Source of the DNA: an uncultured Gammaproteobacteria bacterium
Lineage (GTDB): Bacteria > Patescibacteriota > Patescibacteriia > UBA11705 > DATKZF01
Reading direction: 5' to 3'
NCBI GenBank assembly: GCA_964411255.1
Contig: CAYPKD010000005.1
Coordinates: forward strand, 5,547 to 69,546
DNA length: 64,000 nucleotides
Position 1 is the first letter of the stretch. Each line of letters begins with the position of its first letter. Made by a program: the position numbers and the translations under genes. Of the stretch, positions 11,007 through 52,118 are shown in pieces. The notes under the pieces were generated by a model. That model was not told the origin of the DNA. It did no database searches and was given only the letters and a program-made list of their open reading frames with translations.

Positions 11007-11038
11007 TAAGGTGGTAGGCCGGTAGGATGGTAGTTTAA
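11007..11038 (+). repeat. TAGNNNGG-type 8-mer array
   Basis: TAAGGTGG TAGGCCGG TAGGATGG TAGTTTAA. Confidence 0.6.
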
Positions 11039-12620: not shown

Positions 12621-13844
12621 ATGAATGCATTTGAAAACGCAATGCAGCAACTTGATAATGCTGCGAAAATAATTAATTTAGATGAAAAAGTGCTTCAGTC
12701 ATTAAAAAGGCCTCAAAAGATAATTGAGGTTTCTTTGCCTGTGAAAATGGATGACGGCTCGTTAAAGTTTTTTGAAGGTTATCGCGTTCAATATAATAAT
12801 TGGCGAGGGCCATTCAAAGGCGGCATTCGGTTCTTTCCAGAAGTTGACAAGGACGAAGTAAAAGCTTTATCGTTTTGGATGACCATAAAGTGCGCTGTTT
12901 TAGATTTGCCGCTTGGAGGCGGAAAAGGCGGTGTTACTGTAAACCCGAAAGAACTTTCAGAAAAAGAGTTGGAAAATTTAAGCCGCGTTTATACCCGGGC
13001 TTTATATAATGACATTGGACCAGACAAAGATGTACCAGCGCCAGATGTTTATACCACTCCTCAAATTATGTCCTGGATGGCTGATGAGTATTCAAAAATT
13101 AAGAAAAAAAAGACACCAGGCGTGATTACCGGAAAACCGCTTGAAGCTGGAGGCTCTGAAGGCAGAAGTACAGCTACGGCTCAGGGAGGATTTTATTTGC
13201 TAAAGCACATTATGGAAATTGAGCAGAGAAAGCCTGAAAATCAAACAGTGGCTATTCAGGGATTTGGCAATGCAGGCTCAGTAATGGCGCAGCTTTGTCA
13301 TCAGGATGGATTAAAAGTAGTGGCAGTTTCAGATTCAAAAGGAGGAATTTATAAAAAAGATGGGTTAGACATTAAAAAAGTTATTGAACATAAAAAAGAA
13401 ACTGGATCAGTGCAAAATTTTGAAAATGCAGAAAATATTTCAAATGAAAAATTATTAGAGCTTGATGTGCAGTTTTTAGTGCCTGCAGCTTTAGAAAATC
13501 AAATAACGCGAAATAACGCAAATAAAATTGACGCCAACATTATTATTGAGCTGGCTAATGGACCGATTACGCCTGAAGCAGACATTATTTTATTTGAAAA
13601 AGGAATAAATGTTGTTCCAGATGTGCTGGCAAATGCAGGTGGGGTGACAGTTTCATATTTTGAATGGTATCAGAATGTAAATAATGAAAAATGGACAGAA
13701 AAAAAGGTTTTTGAAAAATTAAAACCCAAAATGATTGAAAATTACGATCAGGTTTTTGAAAAACGAAATGAATTTCAGGTTGATATGAGGCGGGCAGCGT
13801 TTGTGTTGGCCTTGGAAAGACTAAAGCAAACCTTTCCTTTTTGA
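12621..13844 (+). CDS. gdhA: Glutamate dehydrogenase (Glu/Leu/Phe/Val dehydrogenase family)
   Basis: KGGIRF and PLGGGKGG motifs. Start moved to ATG 12621 (MNAFENAM..); the track extension translates the repeat element. Confidence 0.9.
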   Translation: MNAFENAMQQLDNAAKIINLDEKVLQSLKRPQKIIEVSLPVKMDDGSLKFFEGYRVQYNNWRGPFKGGIRFFPEVDKDEVKALSFWMTIKCAVLDLPLGGGKGGVTVNPKELSEKELENLSRVYTRALYNDIGPDKDVPAPDVYTTPQIMSWMADEYSKIKKKKTPGVITGKPLEAGGSEGRSTATAQGGFYLLKHIMEIEQRKPENQTVAIQGFGNAGSVMAQLCHQDGLKVVAVSDSKGGIYKKDGLDIKKVIEHKKETGSVQNFENAENISNEKLLELDVQFLVPAALENQITRNNANKIDANIIIELANGPITPEADIILFEKGINVVPDVLANAGGVTVSYFEWYQNVNNEKWTEKKVFEKLKPKMIENYDQVFEKRNEFQVDMRRAAFVLALERLKQTFPF

Positions 13845-31943: not shown

Positions 31944-32191
31944 TAGCTTCTCCTTATGGCAGGTTTGTTATTAAGCAAGCGTCCTTGCAAAGCAGGGCTG
32001 TCCAGCAGAGATGACTGGATAGCAAAATACAGGTCCCAAAAGGGAAAATTGTAAATGTGCAGGCCTTCTTGACGTCTCAAGAAAAGGCAAAAATAAATGA
32101 AAAATCACTTGCTTTTGCCTTTTCTTGTTTGAGTAAAGTTAACATTTAATATTGCTAGTGTCAAGCATGTATATAAATAAAATAGCCTTTT

Positions 32192-32351
32192 AAAAAACAG
32201 GCCCGTTAGGCCTGATTTAATCTTTTTCAATTTCGGCTTGTGCCGACCTACTTTTTGCTGCCAAAAAGTAGGCAAAAAGCACTGGGGGGCTTCAAATGCG
32301 AAGCAACGATTAAGTTTGAGGATCGCCCCAAGGGCAATCAGCCCCCCAGAC
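32192..32351 (-). ncRNA. Candidate about 160-nt small RNA (unknown family)
   Basis: Weak promoter (TTGTAA, 15 nt, TAGAAT at 32357-32383). 10-bp closing stem 32282-32291/32340-32349 with two inner hairpins. 11-bp hairpin CCTACTTTTTG/CAAAAAGTAGG. TCGGC-ACAA-GCCGA. Terminator CAGGCC-TAACG-GGCCTG plus TTTTTT. Confidence 0.4.
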
Positions 32352-32385
32352 CCCCGATTCTATTGACGAATTATTTTTTACAAAA

Positions 32386-32412
32386 GACCACCAGTTTCCT
32401 GGTGGCTTTTAT
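32386..32412. terminator. Bidirectional Rho-independent terminator
   Basis: GACCACCAG-TTTC-CTGGTGGC, with T-runs on both strands, directly after the stop of 32409..32744. Confidence 0.7.
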
Positions 32413-32744
32413 TCTAATTCCTTTCTCAATTTTTTTATTTCTGCTTCAGTATCTTTTGATTTATCTTGTTTTTTTACATCTATTATTCTTTGAGTTAACA
32501 TTTGTTGTGATTTTGCCAGAGCTGCTTGACGATTTGTTTTTATTTGTTCATGCATTTTTTTAGCTTCTGCTACTTGTTTTTGAGCCAGTTCTTCAAGTTC
32601 TTGAGGAGTTTTTGTTTGCATTTCAATAATTAAGTTTAATTCATCTTCAGTCAGATCTTTAGCCATTGAAAGCAACTTGTCTTTTTTTGCTTTTGGCAAA
32701 TTTGATTTTTTTATTTGAGTAATTATTTTCTTTTTTTTATCCAT
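32409..32744 (-). CDS. 111-aa Lys/Glu-rich coiled-coil protein
   Basis: Start is 1 nt from the upstream stop (translational coupling). No family recognised. Confidence 0.65.
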   Translation of the reverse strand: MDKKKKIITQIKKSNLPKAKKDKLLSMAKDLTEDELNLIIEMQTKTPQELEELAQKQVAEAKKMHEQIKTNRQAALAKSQQMLTQRIIDVKKQDKSKDTEAEIKKLRKELE

Positions 32745-32745
32745 A

Positions 32746-33111
32746 TTAAATTGCTTGGGCTATTCTCATAAGCTGACCAGTAATATAAATTGCTTTTGAC
32801 AATCTTTTATGCTCTCGAACCCAGTTGTTAAATTTAGCTCTGTTGGCATTGGCTTCATCTCTTATGTTCTCTTCGGCTAACTGGGATATTTCCAAAACGC
32901 GCTCATCGTCTTCATCTACACCCAGATCTTCAGCCAGTTGAGCAGGATCTCCTTCCCATATGTTACTCTCTTCAAATTTTTTTAATTCTTCTTCTGATAA
33001 TTCTTCAAGCTCGCCGCTTTCCAGCATTTCAAAAAAATTCTGCTCTTCTTCAGGAGTAGATATTTGTTCTGGAGCTTCAAGCTCAGGTTGTAATTGTTCT
33101 ATATCAACCAT
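32746..33111 (-). CDS. 121-aa strongly acidic protein
   Basis: No SD. A -10-like TATACT ends 9 nt before the ATG (possible leaderless mRNA). No family recognised. Confidence 0.6.
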   Translation of the reverse strand: MVDIEQLQPELEAPEQISTPEEEQNFFEMLESGELEELSEEELKKFEESNIWEGDPAQLAEDLGVDEDDERVLEISQLAEENIRDEANANRAKFNNWVREHKRLSKAIYITGQLMRIAQAI

Positions 33112-33140
33112 ACGATATTAGTATAACATATTACATTTTA

Positions 33141-33350
33141 CAAACAAAAAACAGCCTGCCAAAGAGACTGTTTTTTGATATTATCATTGGGATTACTGAT
33201 TTGATATTACTCTAACATCACACTGTTGCCAAGAAAAGATAGTTGGAGAGAGGTTTAAAGAACATCTATCTCTTTTGGCAAGCAGTGTGATGCCAAAGTT
33301 TGTTTACAAACTCCAGAGGAATTAGGAGCAGATGAGTGCTCCTAAAGGAA
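33141..33350 (-). ncRNA. Hairpin-dense 3' UTR or candidate sRNA downstream of the DHH-like gene
   Basis: AGGAGCA-GATGA-GTGCTCCT, AGTTTG-TTTA-CAAACT, a long imperfect hairpin 33216-33242/33266-33292 (about 23 bp), then terminator 33146-33176 with T-run on the minus strand. Confidence 0.4.
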
Positions 33351-33353
33351 AGA

Positions 33354-34199
33354 TTAGGAAAAGAGAGAATTGGCAGTTTCTGCCAGTTTGACAGGATCTA
33401 CGTTGGAAGGACTGGTAGCCGGAGCCTTTCTGGTACCGCGACTGAAAAGAAATCCTGAAGAATGGGCAAACCATTGATCCAGTTCACCCTGCTGTTCAAC
33501 TATTTCTCGAAGCTGGGGATGATCCATGCGCAAAGTCTGTGATCCCTCGCGGAAAATACCCAGACTATGGCCGTCTACGTAGACAATGGCTTTTACACCA
33601 CGCTCAAACAAAACATATGAGGTGGCGCAGTGTCGCATGTTTCTGAGAATAGCCACATTGTCTCCAGGCAAAATTTCAGCCTCATTAGCTTCAATCTTAG
33701 CCATTTGACGGGATCGGCCAGCTTTCAGCATACCATCAAAGATTTCTGACATGCATTCGATAACAGTATCGTCCCGGCCAGGAAAAATAGACTGGAAAGC
33801 ACGAAGTACTGAATTGATGCCGGTCAGCGAGAAGATTTGCTGCGCTTCATCATTGATTTCAGGCGCCAGGAATTTGACAGCAGAGCCATGAGCATCCTGG
33901 GCATCAATGAATGTAACCAGCGGAGCAAGAGCTTCCTGGTCATTTTTTGAAGCCAGTTTTGAAATGATAGTGGCAAAACAGGAATGTACTGTGCCATCAT
34001 CATCTTTTTTGCCTTTTACTCCTTTGCCGCCAGCTTCAATGTCAACGGCAACAGCTTTATCCTCATTGAGTCCAGTCCCGTCCCAGTTAGCTGGGCGGAA
34101 ACAAACTTCAGCATCCATGTATGCTTCAGCAAAAGTACGGATAGCCCATACAGATGCCACCGCATCAAGGTCCACGTTCATGTGGGTAAAAATTTTCAT
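33354..34199 (-). CDS. DHH-superfamily-like phosphoesterase (divergent)
   Basis: SD AAAGAGAGG. Motif I-like THMNVDLDAVAS, AVAVDIEAGG, FIDAQDAHG (DHH appears as DAH), FAHSSGF near the C-terminus. Confidence 0.55.
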   Translation of the reverse strand: MKIFTHMNVDLDAVASVWAIRTFAEAYMDAEVCFRPANWDGTGLNEDKAVAVDIEAGGKGVKGKKDDDGTVHSCFATIISKLASKNDQEALAPLVTFIDAQDAHGSAVKFLAPEINDEAQQIFSLTGINSVLRAFQSIFPGRDDTVIECMSEIFDGMLKAGRSRQMAKIEANEAEILPGDNVAILRNMRHCATSYVLFERGVKAIVYVDGHSLGIFREGSQTLRMDHPQLREIVEQQGELDQWFAHSSGFLFSRGTRKAPATSPSNVDPVKLAETANSLFS

Positions 34200-34317
34200 T
34201 TTCGCCTCTCTTTGTTGTGAAAAATTTCCTCTGGAATTTGCAAATTTTTAATTAACACTCTTCGAAATTTATTAAAAGTTAATAAATTTTGGAGAGCGAA
34301 GGAATTTTGTAATTCCT

Positions 34318-34635
34318 TCAGATTTGAGGTAGCGGCCAAAGCTGACGAAGCTGTTTGTCAAAGAATTCGTAAGCTTCAAAATCAGCACCGCAAAGTGTGA
34401 GTTTTGCAATTACTGGTATGAGTTGATTGTGCTCTGCTTTATTGGTGATTACGACATATGAATGGTAAGCAGAGGGATTGAAGTCATTGATTATGACATA
34501 GTCCAGTTTATCTGGCGGGGTCATCCAGTGTGAATCAATGGTAATAACCTGATCAAACTGAAAGCCTTCTTGTCTGGCTAGATCAATGATTTCAGTTGTG
34601 ATTGAACCGAACCAGAACTGGATCAGTATTTTCAC
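34318..34635 (-). CDS. 105-aa hypothetical protein
   Basis: Start re-assigned to GTG 34635, with AAAGGAG 6 nt upstream. The track's ATG at 34698 has no SD. Confidence 0.6.
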   Translation of the reverse strand: MKILIQFWFGSITTEIIDLARQEGFQFDQVITIDSHWMTPPDKLDYVIINDFNPSAYHSYVVITNKAEHNQLIPVIAKLTLCGADFEAYEFFDKQLRQLWPLPQI

Positions 34636-34739
34636 TGAAAGCTCCTTTTTAAAAAAATTTGAAAAAAAACACTCGAATCTAACAAGAGATCCAAGCATTT
34701 TTTCGTACGAAAGTCCGCTTAAGACTCTCTTTCAAAATT

Positions 34740-35100
34740 TCCAAATAAGTTTTAGAAACTTTGAGAGATCGGAGAGTGCAGTGCTCACTCTCCGATGTCC
34801 GTTGCTTTAACCCGTAGGAGGCAGCTTTAGGTGCCTATGCGTTTTAAGGATGCAAGCGTTAAAGATCTCGGCTTGTTCATCCTGTTACCCATCCCCACTA
34901 GAGGATGTATTGGGTGGTTAGCAGAATTTTATACAGGCGCCTCTGCCAGGGCGCAGATGTAAACACATTGATGACAGATTATTATCTCTTGCCACCAAAT
35001 TAATGTTGTGAAGAGCCTTGTTGCTCTTCTCTGAATTCTGAAAATAAATTTCAGAACTCGGAGAAGCTGAGGATGGTTTGACGCATCCTCAGATATTTCC
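34740..35100. other. ORF-free G+C-rich segment with at least 8 stable hairpins (unknown structured RNA or element)
   Basis: Hairpins at 34768-34796 (11 bp perfect), 34813-34841, 34848-34882, 34888-34914, 34937-34954, 35010-35029, 35031-35061 and 35067-35092. Stops occur in all frames. Confidence 0.4.
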
Positions 35101-35126
35101 TTTCTTAAAATTTGGAGGTGAATAAC

Positions 35127-35567
35127 CTAGGCCTCTTTGTTTTGGCTCTGAGCTTCAGCTTCTGCCTGGGCCTTGGCCTGCTTGAGTGCAGCCTTGGCTT
35201 TGGCTTCAGCTTCGGCCTGCTTGCGCTTTTCAGCGTCAAGTTTGGCCAGACCACCGAGGCCTGTGTTGGGCGCACCACCAGCGCGGCTGGAGCCCTGCCG
35301 TCGGCGCTTGATTTCCAAGCGCTTGAAGCGGGGATCACCATGCTGATGCTTTGCCTGGCGGCGGCGCTGGTTGCGGCGCTGGCGGCGCAGATTACGCTTG
35401 GCGCGAAGTTCATCACGCTCAACCTTGACCTGCGCACGTCGCTCAGCATTCTCAGCTTTGCGAACCAGCTCCTGCCATTTCTTCAGGCCACCATGACGGC
35501 CGCAGAAACCGCGGCCAGCCAGGACATCAGCCGTACACCCGTCATGCTTACACTTTTCCACCTTCAT
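35127..35567 (-). CDS. 146-aa Zn-knuckle (C-x4-C-x10-C-x2-H) plus Arg-rich plus Ala/Lys/Glu-tail protein, probable nucleic-acid binder
   Basis: SD GGGAGG 5 nt before the ATG. Contains EKCKHDGCTADVLAGRGFCGRHGG and RRQRRNQRRRQAKH. Chosen over two overlapping ORFs that lack signals. Confidence 0.6.
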   Translation of the reverse strand: MKVEKCKHDGCTADVLAGRGFCGRHGGLKKWQELVRKAENAERRAQVKVERDELRAKRNLRRQRRNQRRRQAKHQHGDPRFKRLEIKRRRQGSSRAGGAPNTGLGGLAKLDAEKRKQAEAEAKAKAALKQAKAQAEAEAQSQNKEA

Positions 35568-35620
35568 GTGGGCCTCCCTATATAAAAAGATTAATAGACA
35601 TTTTTGTCAAAATTGCTGAA

Positions 35621-35766
35621 AGGACGATGTAGGTGAGATGCCAAAGAGATTTGAAGGGACTTAAATAGATTTATTTCCCTTATCTCAATATGGGCAAAAT
35701 ATGCTCAGCCAATCTAATCGCAAGCGAATAGATCAGCATGAACTTCTCTCTCCTCTACATCGTTCT
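35621..35766. other. About 145-nt three-way-junction-like element
   Basis: AGGACGATGTAGGTGAGA (35621-) pairs with TCTCTCCTCTACATCGTTCT (-35766). Inner hairpins are GAGAT..AAGGGA/TCCCTT..ATCTC and CTAATCG-CAAG-CGAATAG. Confidence 0.4.
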
Positions 35767-35780
35767 GTTCAGAAATTAGA

Positions 35781-35815
35781 CATATAAAAACAGACTGAGA
35801 GAACCATGTCTGTTT
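35781..35815 (-). terminator. Terminator-like hairpin inside the long leader (possible attenuator or sRNA 3' end)
   Basis: Minus strand reads AAACAGAC-ATGGTTCTCTCA-GTCTGTTT followed by TTATAT. Confidence 0.4.
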
Positions 35816-35891
35816 AAAATACAGCTTTATAATCTAGCTGACTCTCTCTCCATGAAATTTGTTAGATTTCAATTTTCGATTTTGATTTAGT

Positions 35892-35920
35892 ATTATAGCA
35901 TATTTTTTTAAAAAAGTCAA
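35892..35920 (-). promoter_or_regulatory. Near-consensus sigma70 promoter reading toward 35567
   Basis: Minus strand reads TTGACT, 17-nt spacer, TATAAT. Confidence 0.55.
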
Positions 35921-36045
35921 GACGAGAGCATAATTTAAGTCGTTTTTTGTCTAAATTTACGGAAATTACAAATTTGCTAAACTGGTAAATTAATTAAAAT
36001 TTTAGTAAAAATATTACGAATAATTACGAATTAGCAAGGCTGTTA

Positions 36046-36595: not shown

Positions 36596-38023
36596 TTAAA
36601 TAGCATTTTTACCTTTAATCACTGCCCATGGAGTTTTTAATAATATCCAAAAATCAAGTTTTAGCGACCAGTTTTCAATATAGAAAATATCCATTTTTGC
36701 TTCTTCATCAAATGGCAAATCGCTTCGACCACTGATTTGAGCAATACCAGTTATTCCAGGTTTTATATCTAAGGTTCGTAATTGCTCTGGCGTATATCTT
36801 TCAACTTCTCTTGGCTGGTGAGGCCGAGGGCCAACTATGCTCATATTTCCGATAAAGACATTGAAAAATTGAGGCAGCTCATCAATGCTGATTTTTCGGA
36901 TAAATCTGCCAACAGCAGTTACGCGGGGATCTTTTTTTATTTTATATAAAGCACCTCTGGACGCCCCTTGTTCTTTTATTAATTTTTTTTCAAGTTCCAA
37001 TGCTTGTTTACTTGATGGTGCATCTGGCCCTGTACTCATATCCCAATACATTGATCTGAATTTGTATACATTGAATTTTTTTCCATTTTGGCCAACTCTT
37101 TCATTCTTATATATAATTGGCCCTTTTGAATTAATTTTTATGGCAATAGCTGTAAATAGCATTATTGGTGAAGATAAGATTATAAAAATAATTGAACTAA
37201 ATAAATCAGAAAATCTTTTAATAATTTTTTTCCAGCCGTCCAGTGGTGTCTTTTTTATTTCAATTACTGGCAGACCAGCAATCATGTGCGTTTCAATGTT
37301 GGTAGCCCTGGCTTCAAAAGGACCGGCAACATATTTAAAAATAATATGATTATATTTGGCAAAATTGATCAATGAAATTGTATCTTTTCTTGAGATATTT
37401 GGATCAGTTTGAATGATTTCATCAATAAATGTTTTTTTATGAAGAGCTTGAATTTTCATTAATGTGTCTTGATTAAACTGTTCAAAATGTTTGAGAATTT
37501 TTAATCCTAATGAAGGTTGTTTTAAGATTGCATTTTTTACAGCATTAGTATTTGAATTTTTTCCAATAATTATAATTTTATGAGTTCCCCAGCCAGTTTT
37601 ATATAAACTATTTTGAACGATTCTAATTATCATTCTGCCAACAATTATGAAAAGGATGCTGAAAAGCCAGGCAAACAAAATAATAAATCTTGATTCAAAA
37701 AGTTCTCTGACAAAGAACATATATAGAATAATTGCAGTCATGCCAGTAGAGCAGGCTAATATAATCCTGGCCATTTCATCAGTGACTTTTGTTTTTTTAA
37801 ATTTATAAAGAGATGACCAAAAAAAGAAAATCAGCCATATTGCAGCCATTACAATTAGTACACCTAAATATTTATTAAATTCCAGATCAAATACAACCGG
37901 CCTTATTTCAGTAACTGATTCAATAAAACGCAGAGAATAAGCGGTAATACCAGCCAATATTAAAAGAAAGTAGTCAGTGACCAGTTTTATAAGTACAAAT
38001 ATTAATTCTGATTTTTTTATCAT
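36596..38023 (-). CDS. Polyprenyl-phosphate sugar phosphotransferase (WbaP/exopolysaccharide priming enzyme family)
   Basis: Multi-TM N-terminus. C-terminal DELPQFFNV..GNMSIVGPRP and KPGITG motifs (Bac_transf). Confidence 0.9.
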   Translation of the reverse strand: MIKKSELIFVLIKLVTDYFLLILAGITAYSLRFIESVTEIRPVVFDLEFNKYLGVLIVMAAIWLIFFFWSSLYKFKKTKVTDEMARIILACSTGMTAIILYMFFVRELFESRFIILFAWLFSILFIIVGRMIIRIVQNSLYKTGWGTHKIIIIGKNSNTNAVKNAILKQPSLGLKILKHFEQFNQDTLMKIQALHKKTFIDEIIQTDPNISRKDTISLINFAKYNHIIFKYVAGPFEARATNIETHMIAGLPVIEIKKTPLDGWKKIIKRFSDLFSSIIFIILSSPIMLFTAIAIKINSKGPIIYKNERVGQNGKKFNVYKFRSMYWDMSTGPDAPSSKQALELEKKLIKEQGASRGALYKIKKDPRVTAVGRFIRKISIDELPQFFNVFIGNMSIVGPRPHQPREVERYTPEQLRTLDIKPGITGIAQISGRSDLPFDEEAKMDIFYIENWSLKLDFWILLKTPWAVIKGKNAI

Positions 38024-38031
38024 AAATTTGT

Positions 38032-38071
38032 TAGGCTGGTAGATCGGTAGGTTAGTAGGTTGGTAGATTTA
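38032..38071 (+). repeat. TAGNNNGG-type 8-mer array
   Basis: TAGGCTGG TAGATCGG TAGGTTAG TAGGTTGG TAGATTTA. Confidence 0.65.
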
Positions 38072-38151
38072 AAAAAAATTGGAAGAAGGACGCTACTAAT
38101 ATTATTGCAATTTTTTGTAAAAATTTCAATAATAACATCCACCTTCCAATT

Positions 38152-38762
38152 GATCCAAACAGGTCTATAAGCCGAATTCTGTCCCACCAGAGGCGGGGAT
38201 GATCATCTATCTAGTCCCGAGATTACTCTCGGGATCAAGCGAGCTACCAAACTTGCTCTTGCACCAGATAAGGTTTACCACCACCTAATGTTACCATTAG
38301 GCAAGAGAAGTATAAATTAAATAGTCACGTGAACCATTTAACTTTTTTCCTTCTCACTTTTCACCTTTCACCACTGCTACGCAGTGGAATTTCTAAATCC
38401 TAATTTTTTAAACTCTGAACAATTTTCAAATTTTCGAAAGGTTTTAAACATTAGAACATTTGAATTTCGAATTTGTTTAGAATTTCGTATTTCGAATTTA
38501 GCGCTTCCATTGCGCAACAATGGCTAGTATAGTCTCTGTGGCACTGGCTGTCGTCTAGGTTTATTAATTATCCTAGAATCGCCTGGGAGTTACCCAGTAT
38601 CATACCGCAGATTACGCTGATTAGCCGATTACGCAGATTGCAGGACTTTTTTTTATCAGCGTAATCAGCGTAATCTACGGTCAGGTGTTCGGACTTTCCT
38701 CCGGCCTACGCTTTTCACTTTGTTCAAAGCTTCGGCTGGCGATCATCCAACCTATTTGGATC
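38152..38762 (-). ncRNA. rnpB: RNase P RNA (bacterial type A core) with large insertions, about 611 nt
   Basis: Minus strand has GGAGGAAAGTCCGAACAC (CR-I/P4 5'), GTGCCACAGAGAC, GGTAAACC and ACAGAATTCGGCTTATAG (CR-V/P4 3'). P1 pairs GATCCAAATAGGT with ACCTGTTTGGATC; P2 pairs GGATGATC with GATCATCC. Confidence 0.88.
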
Positions 38763-38808
38763 ATAACAATTATATCAAAAATATTGTAAATTGTCAATAG
38801 GTATGCAC

Positions 38809-38886: not shown

Positions 38887-39660
38887 ATGAGACGAGTAAG
38901 GCAATTGACATATTTTGTTGTAATTTCGTTTATTCTCATGTATGTCAATGGATGTTCTTTATATTCTGAAAATGATCGTTCTTTTTTAGATGATCAGAAT
39001 AGACAGTCTGCTCGAAGAACAGTTCGTTCAGATGATTCTATAGATCAAAATCCTAATCAGCTAAAGCGGGAAAAGATTATTCAAGTAGCTCAGGCAAAAC
39101 TTTCTTTGGAAGAATTTGCTCAGGCTGAACCTTTGAAAAGATATTGTGATATTACTGGCACCAGCTTTGAAGTAGAAAAGATGCCAGTTACTATTTCTCA
39201 TGCTGGAAGAGAAGTATATGTGGAAACTGAATTAAAGGATTCAACTCTTTTTAAAGAAAATGCAACAAAAGTGCTGGGCTGGTGGAAGCGAAATTACCGG
39301 GTAAGAAAAGTAGAAGATAAGGGTCTGCGCTTGGTCACCATGCTGAAAATTCCAAGAGCAGCCAAATATGATGATGTTGCCAAGGCAATATTTGAATTCT
39401 ATCAAAAGAATTTTCAAAATATTGTTATTTCAGTTATTTGTCGGGAAATGAATAACTGGGCAGTTGATGAATATCCAAATGATTTTTCTGTGGTGATTGA
39501 AAAAAAACAGGAAAATCAGACCCAAAAAGAAGACAAGGCTGCTGCGAAAAAGGCAGCAAGGGCTGCTGCGAGAAGGGCGGCAAGGGCTGCTGCGAGAAAG
39601 GCAGCAAAGGCTGATGCAAAAGAACCAGCCAAACCTCCTGCAAAAAAAGCAGATGAATAA
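38887..39660 (+). CDS. Lipoprotein with Ala/Lys/Arg-rich (histone-H1-like) C-terminal tail
   Basis: SD TAAGGAGGAA. Lipobox YVNGC. Tail is AAAKKAARAAARRAARAAARKAAKADAKEPAKPPAKKADE. Confidence 0.75.
   Translation: MRRVRQLTYFVVISFILMYVNGCSLYSENDRSFLDDQNRQSARRTVRSDDSIDQNPNQLKREKIIQVAQAKLSLEEFAQAEPLKRYCDITGTSFEVEKMPVTISHAGREVYVETELKDSTLFKENATKVLGWWKRNYRVRKVEDKGLRLVTMLKIPRAAKYDDVAKAIFEFYQKNFQNIVISVICREMNNWAVDEYPNDFSVVIEKKQENQTQKEDKAAAKKAARAAARRAARAAARKAAKADAKEPAKPPAKKADE
39538..39633 (+). repeat. 24-nt tandem repeat, about 3.5 copies, in-frame
   Basis: GCTGCTGCGAAAAAGGCAGCAAGG / GCTGCTGCGAGAAGGGCGGCAAGG / GCTGCTGCGAGAAAGGCAGCAAAG, plus a degenerate copy. Confidence 0.85.
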
Positions 39661-42198: not shown

Positions 42199-42205
42199 AT
42201 ATTTT

Positions 42206-42245
42206 TAGATTGGTAGATCGGTAGATTTGTAGATTGGTAGTTAGA
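42206..42245 (+). repeat. TAGNNNGG 8-mer array, left flank of the four-helix-bundle pseudogene
   Basis: TAGATTGG TAGATCGG TAGATTTG TAGATTGG TAGTTAGA. Confidence 0.8.
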
Positions 42246-42246
42246 A

Positions 42247-42629
42247 TTATTTATTATTTAATTCTTTAGTTTTTGAATTTGTCATTTTATTCAACATTCG
42301 CATGACTTCATTTAATAAATTATCAACTTTTAAAAAATTTAATTTTTTTCCAAATGGTAGACGATTGGCAATTTCTATTTGAGTTTCTAATTCTGCCCCG
42401 GAAGCATATGCTACTATTAAAAAGTGACGATATTCTTTTATTGTTAGTCGTTTTTTTCCTTCAGCGATATTCGAGGGGATAGATATAGCTGTTTTTCGTG
42501 TATGTTGAATTAATCCAAATGATTCAATTTTCGGATATTATTCTGTTAATTCATAGACCGCGACAACTAAATCCATTGCTTTTTGCCAAACAATTAATTT
42601 CCGGTAATCCCCAGGTTGATTAATTTCAT
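42247..42629 (-). pseudogene. Four-helix-bundle protein (23S rRNA intervening-sequence protein family), disrupted
   Basis: ..YRKLIVWQKAMDLVVAVYELTE*YPKIESFGLIQHTRKTAISIPSNIAEGKKR..YASGAELETQIEIA. In-frame TAA at 42538-42540, plus a frame offset between the ATG (42629) and the conserved frame. Confidence 0.75.
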
Positions 42630-48313: not shown

Positions 48314-48438
48314 TTTAAATTTGAGAATAGTTATTTAGAAATCAGTATTAGAAATAAGATAATAAAAATAGTTTTTAAATACTAATTTCAAATTTCCATT
48401 TTCCATTACCAATTTTGATTTTCTATAAACTAATTTCT

Positions 48439-49539
48439 ATGAGAAAAAACATTGAGGGATCAGAAGCAATAGCTGAGGTGGTTAAATTAATACAACCAGA
48501 AGTGGTAGCCACTTTTCCAATTACACCTCAGACTCATATAATAGAACATCTGGCTAAATATAAAGCAGATGGTGAGGTTGGTTTTGAATATATAAAAACT
48601 GAAAGTGAGTTTGCAGCAGCCTCAGTTGTTTTGGGTGCCAGCGCGATGGGGGTACGGGTATACACCGCTTCCAGCTCACAAGGATTGCTTTTAATGGGCG
48701 AGGTTTTATATGACATTGCTGGCATGAGATTGCCCGTGGTTATAACTGCAGCTAATAGGGCGATTTCCGCGCCATTAAATATTTGGAATGACCATCAGGA
48801 TGTAATGCCTTTTCGTGATGCTGGCTGGATAATGCTTTTTGCTGAGACTAATCAGGAGGCGATGGATCTGCATCTTTTGGCTTTCAAGTTGGCTGAAAAA
48901 TTATCGCTCCCAGCAATGGTTTGCATGGATGGTTTTGTCTTAACCCACACTTATGAGCCGGTTGACATTCCAAAGTTAAGCGAAGTTAAAAAGTTTTTAC
49001 CTAAATACAGGCCAAAGAAAAATACATATTTAGATGTGATTAATCCGGTTAGCCTGGGTTGTTTTGCCACCCCAGCTGATTATCAGGAAATAAGACTGGA
49101 ATTACATGAGGATTTATTAAAATCAAAAAATCTATTCATTCAGGAAGCAAAGAAATTTAAAAAGATTTTTAAACGGAATTTAAATATTATTGATTATTAC
49201 GGCCCAAAAAATGCAAAAACTGTAATTGTCGCGATGGGAGCAGCTTTAGGCACCATTAAAGAAGCTGCAGATCAGTTAAATGAAAAAGGATCAAAGGTGG
49301 GAGTATTAAAAATATCAATGCTGCGGCCTTTTCCAAAAATGGAAATAAAACATTTATTAAAAGATAAAAAAAACGTGATTGTTCTGGATCGGGCAATATC
49401 ACTGGGTTCTGGTGGTATATTATATAATGAGGTTAGAAATGCTTTATGCAATACCAATGCCAAGGTTAGCGGAGCAGTAAACGGCTTGGGTGGAAGGGAT
49501 ATTACAATTGATTTTATTAAAAAACTTATTGTAGCGTGA
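48439..49539 (+). CDS. porA: 2-oxoacid:ferredoxin oxidoreductase alpha subunit
   Basis: GSEAIAE..ATFPITPQT N-terminus. Start moved to ATG 48439. Confidence 0.9.
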   Translation: MRKNIEGSEAIAEVVKLIQPEVVATFPITPQTHIIEHLAKYKADGEVGFEYIKTESEFAAASVVLGASAMGVRVYTASSSQGLLLMGEVLYDIAGMRLPVVITAANRAISAPLNIWNDHQDVMPFRDAGWIMLFAETNQEAMDLHLLAFKLAEKLSLPAMVCMDGFVLTHTYEPVDIPKLSEVKKFLPKYRPKKNTYLDVINPVSLGCFATPADYQEIRLELHEDLLKSKNLFIQEAKKFKKIFKRNLNIIDYYGPKNAKTVIVAMGAALGTIKEAADQLNEKGSKVGVLKISMLRPFPKMEIKHLLKDKKNVIVLDRAISLGSGGILYNEVRNALCNTNAKVSGAVNGLGGRDITIDFIKKLIVA

Positions 49540-49556
49540 TAATTTTGAGAATTGGA

Positions 49557-49633
49557 GGTTACGGAATTACGGAAGGTTACTGATATTACGGATATCCGTA
49601 GTATCCGTAATAATCAGTAAATCCGTAATCCCT
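49557..49633. repeat. 8-nt-periodic array with central inversion (TTACGGA words, then TCCGTAA words)
   Basis: GTTACGGA ATTACGGA AGGTTACT GATATTAC GGAT|ATCC GTAGTATC CGTAATAA TCAGTAAA TCCGTAAT. Centre at 49593/49594. Confidence 0.8.
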
Positions 49634-49640
49634 AATAAAT

Positions 49641-52118
49641 ATGAAAAAAATAATATTACTTACAATTCTTCTGGCATTAATTTGCACGTCTTTTTTAGTT
49701 GCTGCCAAGGTTAGTGCGTTTGAGCCTTTGGAAGAATTAATTCCAAGAATGAAAATCCCGATCCCGCAGCTTGAACCATTTCAAAAGCCTACTTATGTGG
49801 AAGAAGGAGGCAAGGGCTATATTTTCATTCCATGGATAGCCCAATATGTAAGTGCAATGTATAAATATGCTTTGGCTATTGGATCAATCATTGCTGTGAT
49901 TGCAGTTATGGTAGGAGGAATTTTATATTTAACCTCTGGCGGTGCGCCTGGCAGAATAGATCAGGGTAAAAATATTATTATTGGTGCTATTACCGGACTT
50001 TTAATTATAATTTTTTCTTATATCTTTTTAAATACAATTAATCCTGAACTGGTGAATCTTAAGGCTATTAGAATTCAAGCTGTAAAACAAGAAGCATTAG
50101 TGGTTGGAAATAATTGTAAGGATTTGGGAGCTGGATTTATAGTCAGAACTCCAAGCGGAGAAAAAGAAGGAACAACAGGTAATGCCCAGTATTTTGCATG
50201 CGGCAGTTCATATCCAGTAAGGTCAGGGGCAGCAGATGTGATTGTTCCCGAAGGTCAGAATTGCGATGGGGCGTATTGCCAAAAGGGTGCTTGCGAGACT
50301 GTTGATGGTAAACCACAGTGTGTGAATGCTTTGTTTACAGGAGAAATTACAGGAACGATGTTGTCCGGAGGAAGATATATTGATGAAGAATTTGAGCTTT
50401 GGGGCATGCCGGGAAATGGTCTTCTCGCAGCATTTCCAGTTCCATCTAAAGGACGATATGTTATTCCTTTAACAGCTGAATTAGAAAACAAACTAAATCT
50501 TGTAGACAAAGTGTATTTTCATCTACAGATAAATACCACAGGTGCTTATCCTTATTGGGCCTATAAAATTGGAAAGGAAGGAGTTGTTGATGTGGATTTG
50601 ATAAAAGAAACGGTAAAAAGTTATTTTAAAACTACAATAGATAGTGAATTTTATGCAGTAAAAAGTTATAAGGATCCAGAAAAAGCAATATGGGGATTCC
50701 CATACTCTCTAGATCAGATGTCCCCACTCAATCCTAGTTATGGTAATACCCCTTGTGATCCATGTTTTGTGATGCCTAGGAACGCTGAATGGCGATTTGA
50801 ACAGAGATTGCCTTGGTGTCAATTTTGGGAACCGACTGATCTTTTAGTAGCAGCAAAAAGTGGATCTGGAACAGTTGTAAATTTTAATATTGATGATTTT
50901 CCAGAATATCCTCAGTGGCCTCCACCGGTTCTAGTAAAAGAACTTCTATTAGATAATATTTCTGGATTACCTACGCCTGAATTTTTAAAGGGTGTTAAAT
51001 ACGAAGATATAGATTGGAATAATTTGGCTACAATCAATCCAGATTTATATCCTTATATGACTGATCCTGCTGAATTTTGTGTGGCTTCGAGTCAGTTAAC
51101 ATCTGCCTCTCCATTTCCTGGGACTCCATGTACTAGTCCGTTTGAGACAGCATTTGTTGCAGCTGATGATGCGAATGCGCCAGATGATTTAAAGGGGAAA
51201 ACATTATATTGTCGGCCTGCTGGTTATCAAGTCGGTTCAGGCACAGCAGTAGCAAAGTTTGAATGGACATTGGAAGATGCTAGGAAAGGAGATACGTGTG
51301 ATAATTTAAGTGTTGCTCAGAGTTTTCCAGGACAATTTTCAGCTGGACAAACAGCAAAAAACGATGGACAGCCATTTGTTAATTGTGAATCTGGCGTTAG
51401 TTGCCAATGGGTTAGCGGTGATGTAGGAGAATGTATAAATGGTTTAACATATTGTTTTGGGTTTTGTGAAGATGATGAAGCAGTATTGTCTATGGGAATT
51501 GGAGATCCATGCAGAGATGGCACCTGCCTTCCATATAAAGGATCAATAGAATTAAAATGCGTTTTAAATGGAAATGCCAGGGAATGTTTATTAGGCACAT
51601 GGGGATCATTTTGCAATACTGATAACGACTGTAAAGACGGTTTTGAATGTATTAAGCATGACACTACAACTACTGATGAAGTTCAATTTTGTGCAAAAAA
51701 GAATGCAGGAAGATGGCAGGCATGTGGAGATAAAATTAGCGGTAGTGGTACGAATTGTTCTTCTGGATTGGATTGTGAGCAAGTAGAATACGGAGAAGAA
51801 GGTGATAGTGACGCACAGTGTGATACAGGCCATTGGTCTGGAGCAGATACTAATAATTTGAAATTTTGTCTTGAAAGTACTTATGATGATAATAATCATG
51901 GGATCTGCTCCTGTTCAAATAATAGTAATTGTGCCAATACTTATGGTTGGGATTCTGGTGCAAATTATTGTAATTTAGCAGGTTATGAATATTGTTCTCA
52001 AAAAGTTGAAGGCGCATGGTGTAAAGTAGAGGGAAAAACAACACCAGACAATTATTTTTGCCATGGTGTAGGAGGTGAGTATGGAGTTTTACATCAAAAG
52101 ATTTCAACTAGTCAATAA
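49641..52118 (+). CDS. 825-aa secreted/membrane protein: T4SS-pilin-like (TrbC/VirB2-type) N-terminal module plus large Cys-rich ectodomain
   Basis: Signal peptide. IPWIAQYV..GGILYLTSGGAPGRIDQGKNIIIGAITGLLIIIFSYIFLNTINP. About 40 Cys counted by eye in the C-terminal 680 aa. Confidence 0.8.
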   Translation: MKKIILLTILLALICTSFLVAAKVSAFEPLEELIPRMKIPIPQLEPFQKPTYVEEGGKGYIFIPWIAQYVSAMYKYALAIGSIIAVIAVMVGGILYLTSGGAPGRIDQGKNIIIGAITGLLIIIFSYIFLNTINPELVNLKAIRIQAVKQEALVVGNNCKDLGAGFIVRTPSGEKEGTTGNAQYFACGSSYPVRSGAADVIVPEGQNCDGAYCQKGACETVDGKPQCVNALFTGEITGTMLSGGRYIDEEFELWGMPGNGLLAAFPVPSKGRYVIPLTAELENKLNLVDKVYFHLQINTTGAYPYWAYKIGKEGVVDVDLIKETVKSYFKTTIDSEFYAVKSYKDPEKAIWGFPYSLDQMSPLNPSYGNTPCDPCFVMPRNAEWRFEQRLPWCQFWEPTDLLVAAKSGSGTVVNFNIDDFPEYPQWPPPVLVKELLLDNISGLPTPEFLKGVKYEDIDWNNLATINPDLYPYMTDPAEFCVASSQLTSASPFPGTPCTSPFETAFVAADDANAPDDLKGKTLYCRPAGYQVGSGTAVAKFEWTLEDARKGDTCDNLSVAQSFPGQFSAGQTAKNDGQPFVNCESGVSCQWVSGDVGECINGLTYCFGFCEDDEAVLSMGIGDPCRDGTCLPYKGSIELKCVLNGNARECLLGTWGSFCNTDNDCKDGFECIKHDTTTTDEVQFCAKKNAGRWQACGDKISGSGTNCSSGLDCEQVEYGEEGDSDAQCDTGHWSGADTNNLKFCLESTYDDNNHGICSCSNNSNCANTYGWDSGANYCNLAGYEYCSQKVEGAWCKVEGKTTPDNYFCHGVGGEYGVLHQKISTSQ

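Follow-up and report, generated by a model that had tools for sequence, protein, structure and literature searches.

The gene for RNase P RNA (rnpB), the ribozyme that trims precursor tRNAs, is oversized in the stretch of DNA analysed here (64 kb, hereafter the window), and the locus raises the question of what the additional sequence is, where in the ribozyme it lies and whether it would be part of the mature RNA. The first-pass annotation had put the excess at about 200 nt; the gene is indeed too long, by ~240 nt relative both to the 367-position consensus and to the smallest relative (360 nt). A search with the covariance model RF00010 gave a full-length match, from 38758 to 38152 on the minus strand (607 nt, 139.6 bits, E 8e-43; gathering score, 100 bits), that covered the model end to end (positions 1-367). 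This match confirmed the type-A core recognized earlier and fixed the boundaries of the gene. The end coordinate proposed previously, 38762, approximates the transcription start that is predicted from the position of an upstream sigma-70 promoter, which has an extended -10 TG; a matching promoter lies 5′ of rnpB in the relatives L005, L008, L012, L016 and L044. Directly 3′ of the gene, a long hairpin followed by a T run is the probable terminator of the rnpB precursor. The hairpin is conserved in L005, L016 and L044, and a simple terminator scan made no call for it because its loop is too long.

The genomic setting is that of a housekeeping chromosomal region, with rpoC, ftsH, infB and the genes for RNase J, uvrA and the CCA-adding enzyme among the surrounding genes. 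The gene order purA - rnpB - sugar transferase is conserved, and rnpB is present in every relative that spans the gap. The best named matches of RpoC are all Patescibacteria or Parcubacteria-type, and on this sequence evidence the host is an uncultivated bacterium of the Patescibacteria (CPR). The NCBI labels of relatives disagree: GCA_035528115.1 is filed as 'Ca. Bipolaricaulota' and JBMORT01 as 'Patescibacteria group'. The RpoC matches settle the affiliation as Patescibacteria.

The alignment accounts for P1-P5, P7-P11, J11/12, J12/13, P13/P14, P15 with its GGU, P18 and both P4 strands, and the catalytic and substrate-binding type-A core is, as read from these elements, intact (Table 1). The P4 strands, J11/12 and J12/13 (GGAGGAAAGUCCG, ACAGAAUUCGGCUUAUAG, GUGCCACAGAGAC, GGUGAAAAG) aligned with high posterior probability, the P8/P9 hairpins are conserved in L005, L008, L016 and L044, and the GGU that base-pairs with the 3′ CCA of tRNA lies in a P15 hairpin motif common to 32 metagenome contigs. 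Since a constrained ViennaRNA fold dropped some of the short helices that were forced, the placement of P7, P10 and P11 is taken from the Rfam alignment and from direct complementarity. P16, P17 and P6 are absent, with 0 nt where RF00010 has 34 model positions, and P15 forms a closed hairpin. This loss does not exclude a type-A assignment, because loss of the P16/P17 type is described as 'not unusual' in CPR in the available text of PMC8172020. The type-A helices P13 and P14, plus P18, are all present.

Table 1. Features of the rnpB locus in the window.
Feature	Position	Strand	Basis
rnpB promoter (TTGACA, 17 nt spacer, TG-n-TATAAT)	38769..38797	-	12/12 consensus matches
rnpB (607 nt), RNase P RNA with a type A core	38152..38758	-	RF00010 full model; identical in L001, L002, L003
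P3, about 40 nt, moderately extended (~+15-16 nt, in loop, vs model)	38701..38740	-	alignment; weak fold z -2.1
P4 pseudoknot, conserved 5′ strand, GGAGGAAAGUCCG	38690..38702	-	RF00010 alignment, posterior probability '*'
Hairpin between P5 and P7 (type-B P5.1 position), 76 nt	38605-38681	-	dG -37.3, z -9.5
P8 (38583-38597) and P9 (38553-38577), cruciform hairpins	38553..38597	-	constrained and local folds
J11/12 conserved strand, ACAGAGACUAUA	38528..38539	-	RF00010 alignment; invariant in clade
P12, about 155 nt	38370..38524	-	dG -50.6, z -7.4
J12/13 conserved strand, AAAGGUGAAAAGU, no insert	38356..38369	-	RF00010 alignment and clade comparison
P13, 51 nt, clade-specific extended helix, conserved GGUUCACGUGAC tip	38305..38355	-	fold z -4.7
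P14 hairpin, GGUAA loop	38281..38304	-	RF00010 alignment and fold
P15 as closed hairpin (GAGC AAGUUUGGUA GCUC)	38241..38258	-	RF00010 alignment
P18, GUAA loop	38215..38234	-	RF00010 alignment and fold
Small hairpin between P2 and P4 (P19 position)	38183..38197	-	fold and comparison of relatives
P4 conserved 3′ strand, ACAGAAUUCGGCUUAUAG	38165..38182	-	RF00010 alignment
Long hairpin, then T run, directly 3′ of rnpB	38068..38151	-	inverted repeat 38077-38098 / 38130-38151

The additional ~240 nt are distributed over distal extensions: ~+16 nt in P3, +79 nt in the hairpin between P5 and P7, +125 nt in P12 and +32 nt in P13. They occupy the helix tips of P3, P12 and P13, together with the P5/P7 helix that is short in most relatives, and the hairpins at P5/P7, P12 and P13 are far more stable than shuffled sequences (z scores in Table 1). 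The extra sequence had first been placed at 38290-38501. That assignment is right for the P12 extension (38370-38524), and wrong for 38281-38369, which holds the conserved J12/13, P13 and P14. The words GAAAGGTG AAAAGTGA GAAGGAAA, previously taken for units of an octamer insert, belong in fact to the conserved core of J12/13 and to the P13 5′ strand; P13 is 95% identical across the clade. Likewise, the proposed 8-nt periodicity over 38290-38501 is present (lag 8, z 3.8) and is secondary to a period of 7 (lag 7, z 5.7). An Rfam scan of the locus returned no other family, the inserts giving only sub-threshold miRNA-hairpin noise; group I and group II introns and known RNA motifs were considered as the content of the inserts and rejected, as neither the inserts nor the phage copies described below had an Rfam match.

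The hairpin between P5 and P7 forms about 25 near-perfect base pairs. Its 5′ arm carries 2.3 copies of GATTACGCT, and on its 3′ side the complement is repeated about four times in units of 8-9 nt; lag analysis of this GATTACGC helix gave a period of 9 (z 5.3). The extended helix of GATTACGCT words that the first-pass annotation had seen at 38600-38680 is thus real, with limits of 38605-38681. Homologous hairpins occur in L005, with one compensatory G-C to A-U change, and in L008; L016 has the short version CCGCGACUUGUCGCGG, and the hairpin is missing in L044 and L012. Across the family its length is 0 (absent) or 16 to about 170 nt. Because most relatives keep a short hairpin at this site, the P5/P7 hairpin is best read as an elongated ancestral helix rather than a new insertion.

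P12 has a different repeat unit. A GC-containing duplex at its base (CCAUUGUUGCGCAAUGG / CCACUGCGUAGCAGUGG) bears a long AT-rich helix with a 5′ arm of the form (AAAUUCN)n and a 3′ arm of the form (NGAAUUU / AGGAUUU)n; the arms are 7-periodic, with some units of 8. TRF reported a period of 7 for ATTTCGA (6.6 copies, 38458-38499), as an irregular array with 74% matches and 17% indels. When the basal pairs were compared between the window and L016, 37 were shared, one was compensatory, four were changed on one side and none was broken. Although the sugar transferases share only ~69% identity, the 5′ arm of the window, at 34% GC, and that of the L016 locus, at 51% GC, are 92% identical, and the arm sequence is also conserved in phages of 43-54% GC. 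Such conservation exceeds the prediction of neutral expansion and suggests either selection on the sequence or recent transfer. In L005 and L044, P12 is 17 nt long (GUCCGCCUCUGGCGGAC in L005), and the difference between the window and L005 involves the whole module, not the loop alone.

P13 behaves differently from these repeat-built helices. Over five species it shows 95% column identity, 94.7% of cells paired and one compensatory pair, variation too small for a statistical test of covariation, and a pattern scan of species-representative genomes matched one genome only. By this comparison P13 is a conserved clade-specific helix rather than an insert.

Comparison across relatives, one of the checks proposed at the outset, revealed rnpB genes of 360 to 1021 nt at conserved synteny, with segment lengths that vary independently. 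The length of P3 lies between about 20 and about 115 nt, the P19-position hairpin has grown to 65-115 nt in L012, L016, L039 and L045, and repeat arrays in relatives also occupy P3 and P19. In the closest relative, L005 (PurA 85%, sugar transferase 92%), the length of rnpB differs mainly by the absence of the long P12. P3 and P12 modules are mosaically distributed, and the P12 types cut across the protein tree: the window groups with L016, L005 with L044, and L008 with L012, L018 and L034.

Based on these data, the favoured model, to which we assign a probability of about 0.65, is that the window carries a functional CPR rnpB of the single-copy type, whose peripheral repeat hairpins are retained as tolerated expansion segments that grew by slippage and exchange. 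A second, canonical rnpB could lie outside the 64 kb of the genome that is covered. Two of the extensions are made of short tandem repeats, GATTACGCT nonamers at P5/P7 and AAATTCN heptamers in P12, each helix carrying the unit on its 5′ arm and the complement on its 3′ arm. Most probably, the arrays expand by slippage while intrastrand templated correction keeps the second arm complementary, and recombination between related lineages also exchanges whole helix modules. Because the peripheral hairpins point away from the core, the extensions would stay in the mature RNA as neutral additions.

The annotation that preceded this work had also suggested that the process filling the intergenic spacers acts on rnpB. 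Short tandem arrays with periods of 7-10 are about 3-fold enriched in the window over Markov-1 simulations (40 versus 14 +/- 3.5), non-coding DNA, roughly 15% of the sequence, holds 15 of the 22 arrays that reach about 2.5 copies, and four short arrays lie inside rnpB. With repeat families that are also dispersed, the suggestion stands to this extent. It does not extend to the words themselves: octamer arrays in the spacers of the window are built on a GGTAG core, their words differ from the rnpB words, and words of P12 and P5/P7 were not found above chance elsewhere in the 64 kb window (blastn, word size 7; patterns with 2-3 mismatches). Copying of the window's own spacer arrays into rnpB was rejected for this reason. 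A cluster of GAATTT-type words at 10943-10972 was rejected as a repeat copy, being infB coding sequence.

Beyond the window, the repeat families are dispersed through CPR genomes and their phages. Arrays of GATTACGCT recur in viral contigs. The heptamer hairpin forms P12 in the window and in another species (L016) and the P5/P7 hairpin in a third (L039), and its words recur in intergenic DNA of the CPR contigs L025 and L045. Phage contigs that encode portal, head, terminase and tail proteins contain further copies, which are intergenic and lie upstream of structural genes (portal, tail). Copies from different genomes and helices show 80-90% similarity over stretches of 30-50 nt, and no genome's sampled DNA contains two. 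The hairpin has a 5′ arm AAGCRCTAAAT.CGAAATTC..AAACAA and a 3′ arm TTGTTTAGRATTTAGAAATTAGRATTT.

This distribution bears on the strongest alternative, a possible but less probable reading in which the heptamer hairpin is a mobile module that is carried by CPR phages and genomes and enters hairpin tips, those of rnpB among them, by insertion or recombination. The P12 5′ arm of the window and L016 matches the 5′ arm of the L039 P5/P7 insert with a score of 37, compared with 16 +/- 2.4 and a maximum of 27 for shuffles. The family alignment has 69% column identity, a 13-bp core helix and three compensatory pairs. The AT-rich composition of the hairpin is foreign to L016, L039, L052 and L054 (48-54% GC). 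The phage and intergenic copies and the mosaic of P12 types also fit a moving element. However, no terminal inverted repeats apart from the hairpin itself, target-site duplication or associated transposase were seen: comparison of the P12 borders of the window, L005 and L016 yielded neither a target-site duplication nor defined termini, the shared 5′ word AAGCRCTAAAT being the sole candidate terminus. The 64 kb window contains no second copy, similar arms could arise by convergence where one repeat unit is favoured, and recombination of a segment fits the whole-P12 difference from L005 as well as insertion does. This alternative overlaps with the expansion-segment model and differs from it in origin only, P12 being acquired in the one and grown in place in the other. 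A broader proposition, that undescribed, sequence-conserved heptamer and GATTACGCT families move between Patescibacteria and their phages and colonize hairpin tips of an essential ribozyme, creating bacterial 'expansion segments' and RNase P RNAs of up to ~1 kb, is put forward tentatively. The families may act at the RNA level, for instance as RNase III or protein-binding sites in phage leaders.

Selection for a gain of function, for example with the P5/P7 hairpin replacing the P6/P16/P17 tertiary brace or P12 or P13 docking a protein, appears unlikely. It draws on the joint occurrence, in most family members, of a P5/P7 hairpin and a lack of P16/P17, on the description of the type-B P5.1 as replacing P6, P16 and P17 (PMC2858038), on the near invariance of P13 over five species and on the conservation of the P12 arms beyond neutral expectation. 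Yet the absence of the P5/P7 hairpin from L044 and L012 and the 17-nt P12 of L005 and L044 argue that the long forms of both are dispensable within the clade. The range of hairpin lengths (16 to about 170 nt) and the lack of a P15.1 partner helix also speak against it.

Somewhat less probable still is the earlier idea of an IVS-like fate, in which the P12 and P5/P7 duplexes would be cut out, for example by RNase III, and the active RNA would consist of two or three pieces joined through the remaining helices, as in fragmented 23S rRNA. At about 25 bp and at 37 or more bp, both duplexes have the length and near-perfect pairing of substrates that RNase III cuts, and fragmentation is accordingly conceivable. 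Moreover, the modules take the place of helix tips and turn up sporadically in close relatives, L005 having no long P12, a distribution typical of rRNA intervening sequences. Members of this hairpin family also occupy phage spacers immediately 5′ of portal and tail genes, and phage T7 uses RNase III sites at comparable intergenic positions. Against excision stands the cyanobacterial precedent, in which short tandem repeats (STRR) are reportedly part of the RNase P RNA. The conserved pairing at the base of P12 does not discriminate between retention and excision, as both models predict it. An assembly chimera or a decaying, repeat-filled copy is very improbable: although repeats can cause misassembly and only 64 kb of the genome is covered, a 790-nt region containing rnpB is identical in three assemblies made from different samples with different assemblers, the core is intact, the promoter perfect and the synteny conserved, and other species carry homologous inserts.

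Among known systems, the closest to the expansion-segment model is the rnpB of heterocyst-forming cyanobacteria, in which STRR sequences have been described (Vioque 1997, Nucleic Acids Res 25:3471). In both cases, tandem repeats of roughly 7 nt lengthen a peripheral helix of a type-A RNA, here P12, and the repeat families are also intergenic, here in related CPR contigs, with a presence that varies between species. The cyanobacterial repeats, too, are said to lie in P12. The present host, however, is a member of the Patescibacteria and not a heterocyst-forming cyanobacterium, the repeat units differ, and a second repeat-built helix with a 9-nt period is found at the P5/P7 junction. In relatives, arrays also occur in P3 and P19, a single module turns up both in phage genomes and in two different helices, and the rnpB words are absent from the window's intergenic DNA. 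By analogy, the window rnpB works like an STRR-containing rnpB without being a member of that group. P12 itself is 'sometimes dispensable (e.g. in cyanobacteria)' (PMC2858038).

CPR RNase P RNAs have been described, in the part of the study available, as having 'large extensions of helices' and scores below Rfam cut-offs (Lui et al. 2021, PMC8172020). The window RNA shares with them the CPR host, the large helix extensions, the missing P16/P17 and relatives near or below Rfam cut-offs; unlike many of them, it keeps P12, P13, P14 and the GGU motif. The same portion of the paper reports extended or missing helices, such as an extended P15, and within it tandem-repeat composition, shared modules and phage copies go unmentioned. 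The position of the P5/P7 hairpin, in an RNA without P6, P16 and P17, is that of the type-B P5.1, which replaces these three helices (PMC2858038). The likeness is positional: the length here varies widely, from 0 to about 170 nt, and unlike type B the RNA is otherwise type A (P13, P14 and P18 present), with no P15.1 or P10.1. By alignment and folding, the window RNA has no helix after P15 other than P18.

Two further comparisons concern expansion of structural RNAs in general. In the intervening sequences of bacterial 23S and 16S rRNA, as here, the hairpin tips of an essential structural RNA give way to extended helices that are sporadic among relatives; those sequences are defined by an excision that leaves a fragmented mature RNA, and to our knowledge a tandem-repeat build is not typical of them. 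A conserved core with large peripheral insertions and a length that differs greatly between relatives is also a property of eukaryotic rRNA expansion segments and of the Candida glabrata RNase P RNA, reportedly 1149 nt long (Kachouri et al. 2005). We know of no link between these RNAs and dispersed repeat families or phages.

These extensions have a practical consequence. Scores with RF00010 fall to 95 bits in L016, 93 in L028, 58 in L045 and 47 in L039, and because the rnpB genes of 710 and 1021 nt score 95 and 47 bits, below the Rfam cut-off, standard pipelines would miss them and their genomes would appear to lack RNase P RNA. The same annotation problem in CPR genomes is noted in the accessible text of Lui et al. 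(PMC8172020). More generally, the clade displays the peripheral growth of a ribozyme at short evolutionary distances, with P3, the P5/P7 hairpin, P9, P12, P13 and P19 expanding independently, often by short tandem repeats, and modules shared mosaically. That the same repeat families occur both in an essential RNA of the host and in intergenic leaders of phages provides a tractable case for the origin of STRR-like repeats, and lets one ask whether such repeats act as DNA or as RNA. When folding energies of the sense and antisense strands were compared as a test for selection on the RNA, nine of 12 hairpins favoured sense, by margins too small to be decisive. An intergenic hairpin at 49551-49636, made of TTACGGA repeats, follows the same plan as the P5/P7 hairpin of rnpB.

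The identity and boundaries of the gene are established by an end-to-end match to the bacterial type-A RNase P model RF00010 (38758..38152, minus strand, 607 nt), with a score of 139.6 bits (gathering score 100; E 8e-43); Rfam gave no other match in the 64-kb window. This single full-length alignment confirms the rnpB core, and the core motifs, gene length, and GATTACGC helix described in a first-pass annotation of the sequence are all borne out. A perfect sigma-70 promoter places the transcription start near 38762, in agreement with the end coordinate of that annotation. At the 3′ end, a long hairpin adjoins the gene and is followed by a T run. Three contigs from independent assemblies of other samples contain the same 790-nt region, spanning promoter and terminator, without a difference, which rules out an assembly artefact. 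The neighbors are ordinary chromosomal genes: rpoC, ftsH, infB, RNase J, a TrpRS/TyrRS-type synthetase, purA, uvrA, and the CCA-adding enzyme. Among named relatives, the closest RpoC matches all come from "Patescibacteria group", Parcubacteria-group, Kuenen-, Falkow-, Buchanan-, Uhr-, or Magasanikbacteria, which identifies the host (GC ~34%) as a CPR bacterium. The best-supported reading is that rnpB encodes a functional type-A RNase P RNA with lengthened peripheral helices, two of which owe their extra length to repeats whose families are scattered across genomes of CPR bacteria and of their phages.

Helices were placed by Rfam alignment, anchor-based dissection of the relatives, and folding. 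P16 and P17 are absent from the window rnpB (0 nt for 34 model positions in the Rfam alignment), and P6 is therefore missing as well. Compared with the 360-nt rnpB of loci L019, L035, and L036, the smallest relative recovered, the window gene has a surplus of 247 nt, apportioned as +16 nt in P1–P3, +79 nt between P4 and J11/12, +125 nt in P12, +32 nt in P13, and −5 nt after P15. The +79 nt represent an extra hairpin between P5 and P7.

Coordinates of the rnpB promoter, the helices of the RNase P RNA, and complete heptamer-family hairpins in IMG/VR contigs
Feature	RNA position	Window or contig position	Strand	Remarks
rnpB promoter, sigma-70		38797..38769	minus	TTGACA, 17 nt, TG-n-TATAAT; perfect
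P1	1-9 / 595-603			
P2	12-18 / 555-561			
P3	19-58			
P4 5′ strand	57-69			
P5	72-75 / 494-497			
Extra hairpin (P5/P7)	78-154	38681..38605		
P7	158-161 / 489-492			
P8	162-176			
P9	182-206			
P10/P11				
J11/12	220-231			
P12	235-389	38524..38370		
J12/13	390-403			
P13	404-454	38355..38305		
P14	455-478			
P15	501-518			closed hairpin with GGU
P18	525-544			
Small hairpin	562-576			P19 position
P4 3′ strand	577-594			
Hairpin, L052		11398-11535	-	immediately upstream of portal gene
Hairpin, L059		8765-8900	-	directly upstream of ORF
Hairpin, L053		5317-5416		immediately upstream of tail assembly gene
Hairpin, L054		1839-1979	-	directly upstream of ORF

P12 folds into a single long irregular helix (dG −50.6, z −7.4). 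The inserted sequence had been described as 8-nt periodic; the main period of 38290-38501 is 7 (autocorrelation is highest at lag 7, z 5.7, and next highest at lag 8, z 3.8). TRF assigns period 7 to the P12 5′ arm (38458-38499, ATTTCGA x6.6, 74% matches) and period 9 to the extra hairpin (38606-38639 x3.9 and 38655-38675 x2.3, 100% matches), where the autocorrelation also peaks at lag 9 (z 5.3). The words GAAAGGTG AAAAGTGA GAAGGAAA, previously read as insert, belong to the conserved J12/13 strand and to the 5′ strand of P13, neither of which is inserted sequence, and the proposed boundaries need correcting. P13 is a conserved clade-specific helix and no repeat insert: in its 51-nt form, five species show 95% identity, and 94.7% of it is paired, with one compensatory pair.

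Most family members carry a 16–45-nt hairpin of unrelated sequence at the P5/P7 junction (L016, L018, L020, L022, L029, L031, L033, L034, L038, and L043), and there is none at this junction in L044 and L012, which indicates that the helix is ancestral and variable. The window and L005 have versions of 74–76 nt with near-perfect pairing over ~25 bp (z −9.5 and −10.5), and one pair differs between them by a compensatory change, G-C to A-U. The L008 hairpin is 94 nt long and built from another 9–10-nt unit (GCGGACUUC-type), and that of L039 reaches ~170 nt. The position is that of P5.1, which takes over from P6/P16/P17 in type B (PMC2858038); unlike in type B, the remainder of the window RNA is type A.

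Comparison across related genomes, proposed in the first-pass annotation, located rnpB at a syntenic site with differing lengths. The order purA – (small ORF) – rnpB – sugar transferase is kept in metagenome relatives, with rnpB present in every relative whose contig covers that gap. The gene measures 469 nt in L004/L005/L024 (PurA 85%, transferase 92% identity to the window), 599 nt in L008 (72% and 78%), and 686 nt in L012-14/L023 (53% and 69%). A P13-pattern scan of species-representative genomes recovered one MAG, "Patescibacteria group bacterium Betzabe_MAG187" (L016; RpoC 81%), whose rnpB lies at 583-1292 (- strand; 710 nt, 95 bits), and a P15-hairpin motif scan of metagenomes recovered 32 contigs whose rnpB genes measure from about 320 to 1021 nt. 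L039 has the longest (9396-10416, ~1021 nt, 47 bits); L045 (6571-7191, ~620 nt, 58 bits) and L028 (8425-8920, ~500 nt, 93 bits) likewise score below the gathering threshold of 100, as does L016, and routine annotation would therefore miss all four. Size range and low scores agree with Lui et al. 2021 (PMC8172020), in whose survey CPR RNase P RNAs have "large extensions of helices" or lack helices altogether, and 10/35 fall below Rfam thresholds. The adjacency of rnpB and a downstream Bac_transf (PF02397) sugar transferase (window 36596-38758; loci L004-L048) persists even in very distant relatives, with transferase identities down to 35–45%.

The distribution of P12 types does not follow the grouping by protein identity. 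By protein identity, the window groups with L005 and L008 with L044, leaving L016 and L012 outside. The window P12 is homologous to that of L016 (92% identity along 50 nt of the 5′ arm; of the basal pairs, 37 common, 1 compensatory, 4 one-sided, 0 broken), L005 and L044 have an identical 17-nt hairpin (GTCCGCCTCTGGCGGAC) in place of the long form, and L008, L012, L018, and L034 have in common another type, GC-rich and ~100 nt long. P12 is therefore mosaic, and so is P3, since P3 of L005 resembles that of L044, not that of the window. This pattern points to putative gene-segment exchange or repeated replacement. The P12 basal strands (window 38370-38524; L008, L012, L016, L018) are each palindromic and also mutually complementary, loops included, so that two drawings of P12 are possible, an extended duplex or a cruciform bearing a pair of side hairpins. 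Comparison of the window with L016, with 2 broken pairs in the manually paired cruciform versus 0 in the duplex, favors the predicted duplex. Within L039, the P3 (9422-9534) and P19 (10267-10381) extensions are identical at 86/125 aligned positions (score 80 vs shuffles −18.5 +/- 9.3) and thus paralogous, indicating duplication of a helix module within one RNA. P19 of L045 (6662-6699, - strand) contains an exact octamer array, ACAAAAGA x4, and P3 of L028 (8823-8856, - strand) contains AAATTNC-type words.

Both repeat families occur beyond the rnpB of the window. In L039, whose contig has a GC content of 48%, the P5/P7 insert has a 5′ arm that matches the P12 5′ arm of the window and L016 (GGAAGCRCTAAATTCGAAAYACGAAATTCTAAACAA; local score 37 vs shuffles 16 +/- 2.4, maximum 27). 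Intergenic DNA of L025 (584-645, 4270-4340) contains arrays of P12 heptamer words, and L045 has a full hairpin of the heptamer family at 3580-3687. Scans of IMG/VR identified six contigs by a 22-nt 3′-arm pattern and two more by a 5′-arm pattern; genes for terminase, portal, major head, and tail proteins are present on L050, L052, L053, and L054. The hairpins of L052, L059, L053, and L054 are complete, and in all four the A-rich arm precedes the other on the displayed strand; in L052 and L053 the gene downstream is encoded on that strand. Alignment of seven copies gave 69% column identity and a common 13-bp core helix (AAAUUCUAAACAA / UUGUUUAGGAUUU), three pairs of which are substituted on both strands; an Rfam scan of the copies found no matching family. 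Nonamer arrays of the GATTACGCT type, the unit of the P5/P7 hairpin, occur in the IMG/VR contigs, putatively of phages, L055 (~620-660), L056 (~13350-13700), and L057 (2610-2691; ~eight tandem units, contig GC 57%), with GC contents of 45–57%.

On the best-supported reading, the added segments would stay in the mature RNA as tolerated, presumably neutral expansion segments. Repeats would arise by slippage, intrastrand templated correction would keep the arms complementary, and helix modules may recombine between lineages. Two observations argue against simple neutrality of the inserts: conservation of the P12 arms is too high for two genomes with 34% and 51% GC, and the same sequence is kept in phage leaders. 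Together they leave room for P12 as a transferable hairpin module, or for a function exerted by the RNA, for instance as an RNase III site. If the latter holds, the earlier "IVS-like" interpretation of the insert could be right.

RNase P RNA genes, CPR helix extensions, and tandem repeats in cyanobacterial rnpB are known in kind. Vioque reported, in 1997, STRR repeats inside rnpB of heterocyst-forming cyanobacteria, of which the window rnpB is the CPR counterpart. As far as the literature searched shows, helices built from repeats at two sites of a CPR RNase P RNA, the occurrence of one module in a different helix depending on the species, the mosaic module distribution, and the link to phage intergenic hairpins appear to be new.

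The first-pass proposal that one process fills both intergenic spacers and structural RNA fares unevenly. Tandem arrays of period 7–10 are in excess in the window (40 vs 14 +/- 3.5 in Markov-1 simulations), mainly in non-coding DNA, and a nearly palindromic hairpin at 49551-49636, between porA (48415-49539) and an 825-aa ORF (49641-52118), is constructed like the P5/P7 hairpin, with TTACGGA(A/T) 8-9-mers on one arm and the complement on the other (45-nt arms, 78% complementary); the rnpB repeat words, however, occur nowhere else within the 64-kb window. Intergenic octamer arrays, presumably those of the first-pass annotation, have a GGTAG core on the + strand in any flanking-gene orientation (11008-11033, GGTGGTAG GCCGGTAG GATGGTAG; 38040-38070, GGTAGATC GGTAGGTT AGTAGGTT GGTAGAT; 42199-42252, TTGGTAGA x4). 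Two of the three lie directly upstream of minus-strand start codons (sugar transferase, TrpRS/TyrRS-type). In L025, a TTCGTAA heptamer array (690-720) adjoins the sugar transferase start codon upstream, the same location at which the window has CTACC-type octamers, with a different unit. Divergent from rnpB, a 257-aa ORF without a Pfam match (38887-39660) contains a 24-nt tandem repeat x5.4 (AAAAAGCAGACAAGGCTGCTGCGA; 39524-39653) that would encode an 8-residue protein repeat. Finally, 32001-36000 has a GC content of 41% (32–37% elsewhere in the window) and contains inverted repeats (33209-33299; 35605-35782) as well as several ORFs, on either strand, that overlap one another (35105-35585); it might be the site of another non-coding RNA or of foreign DNA.
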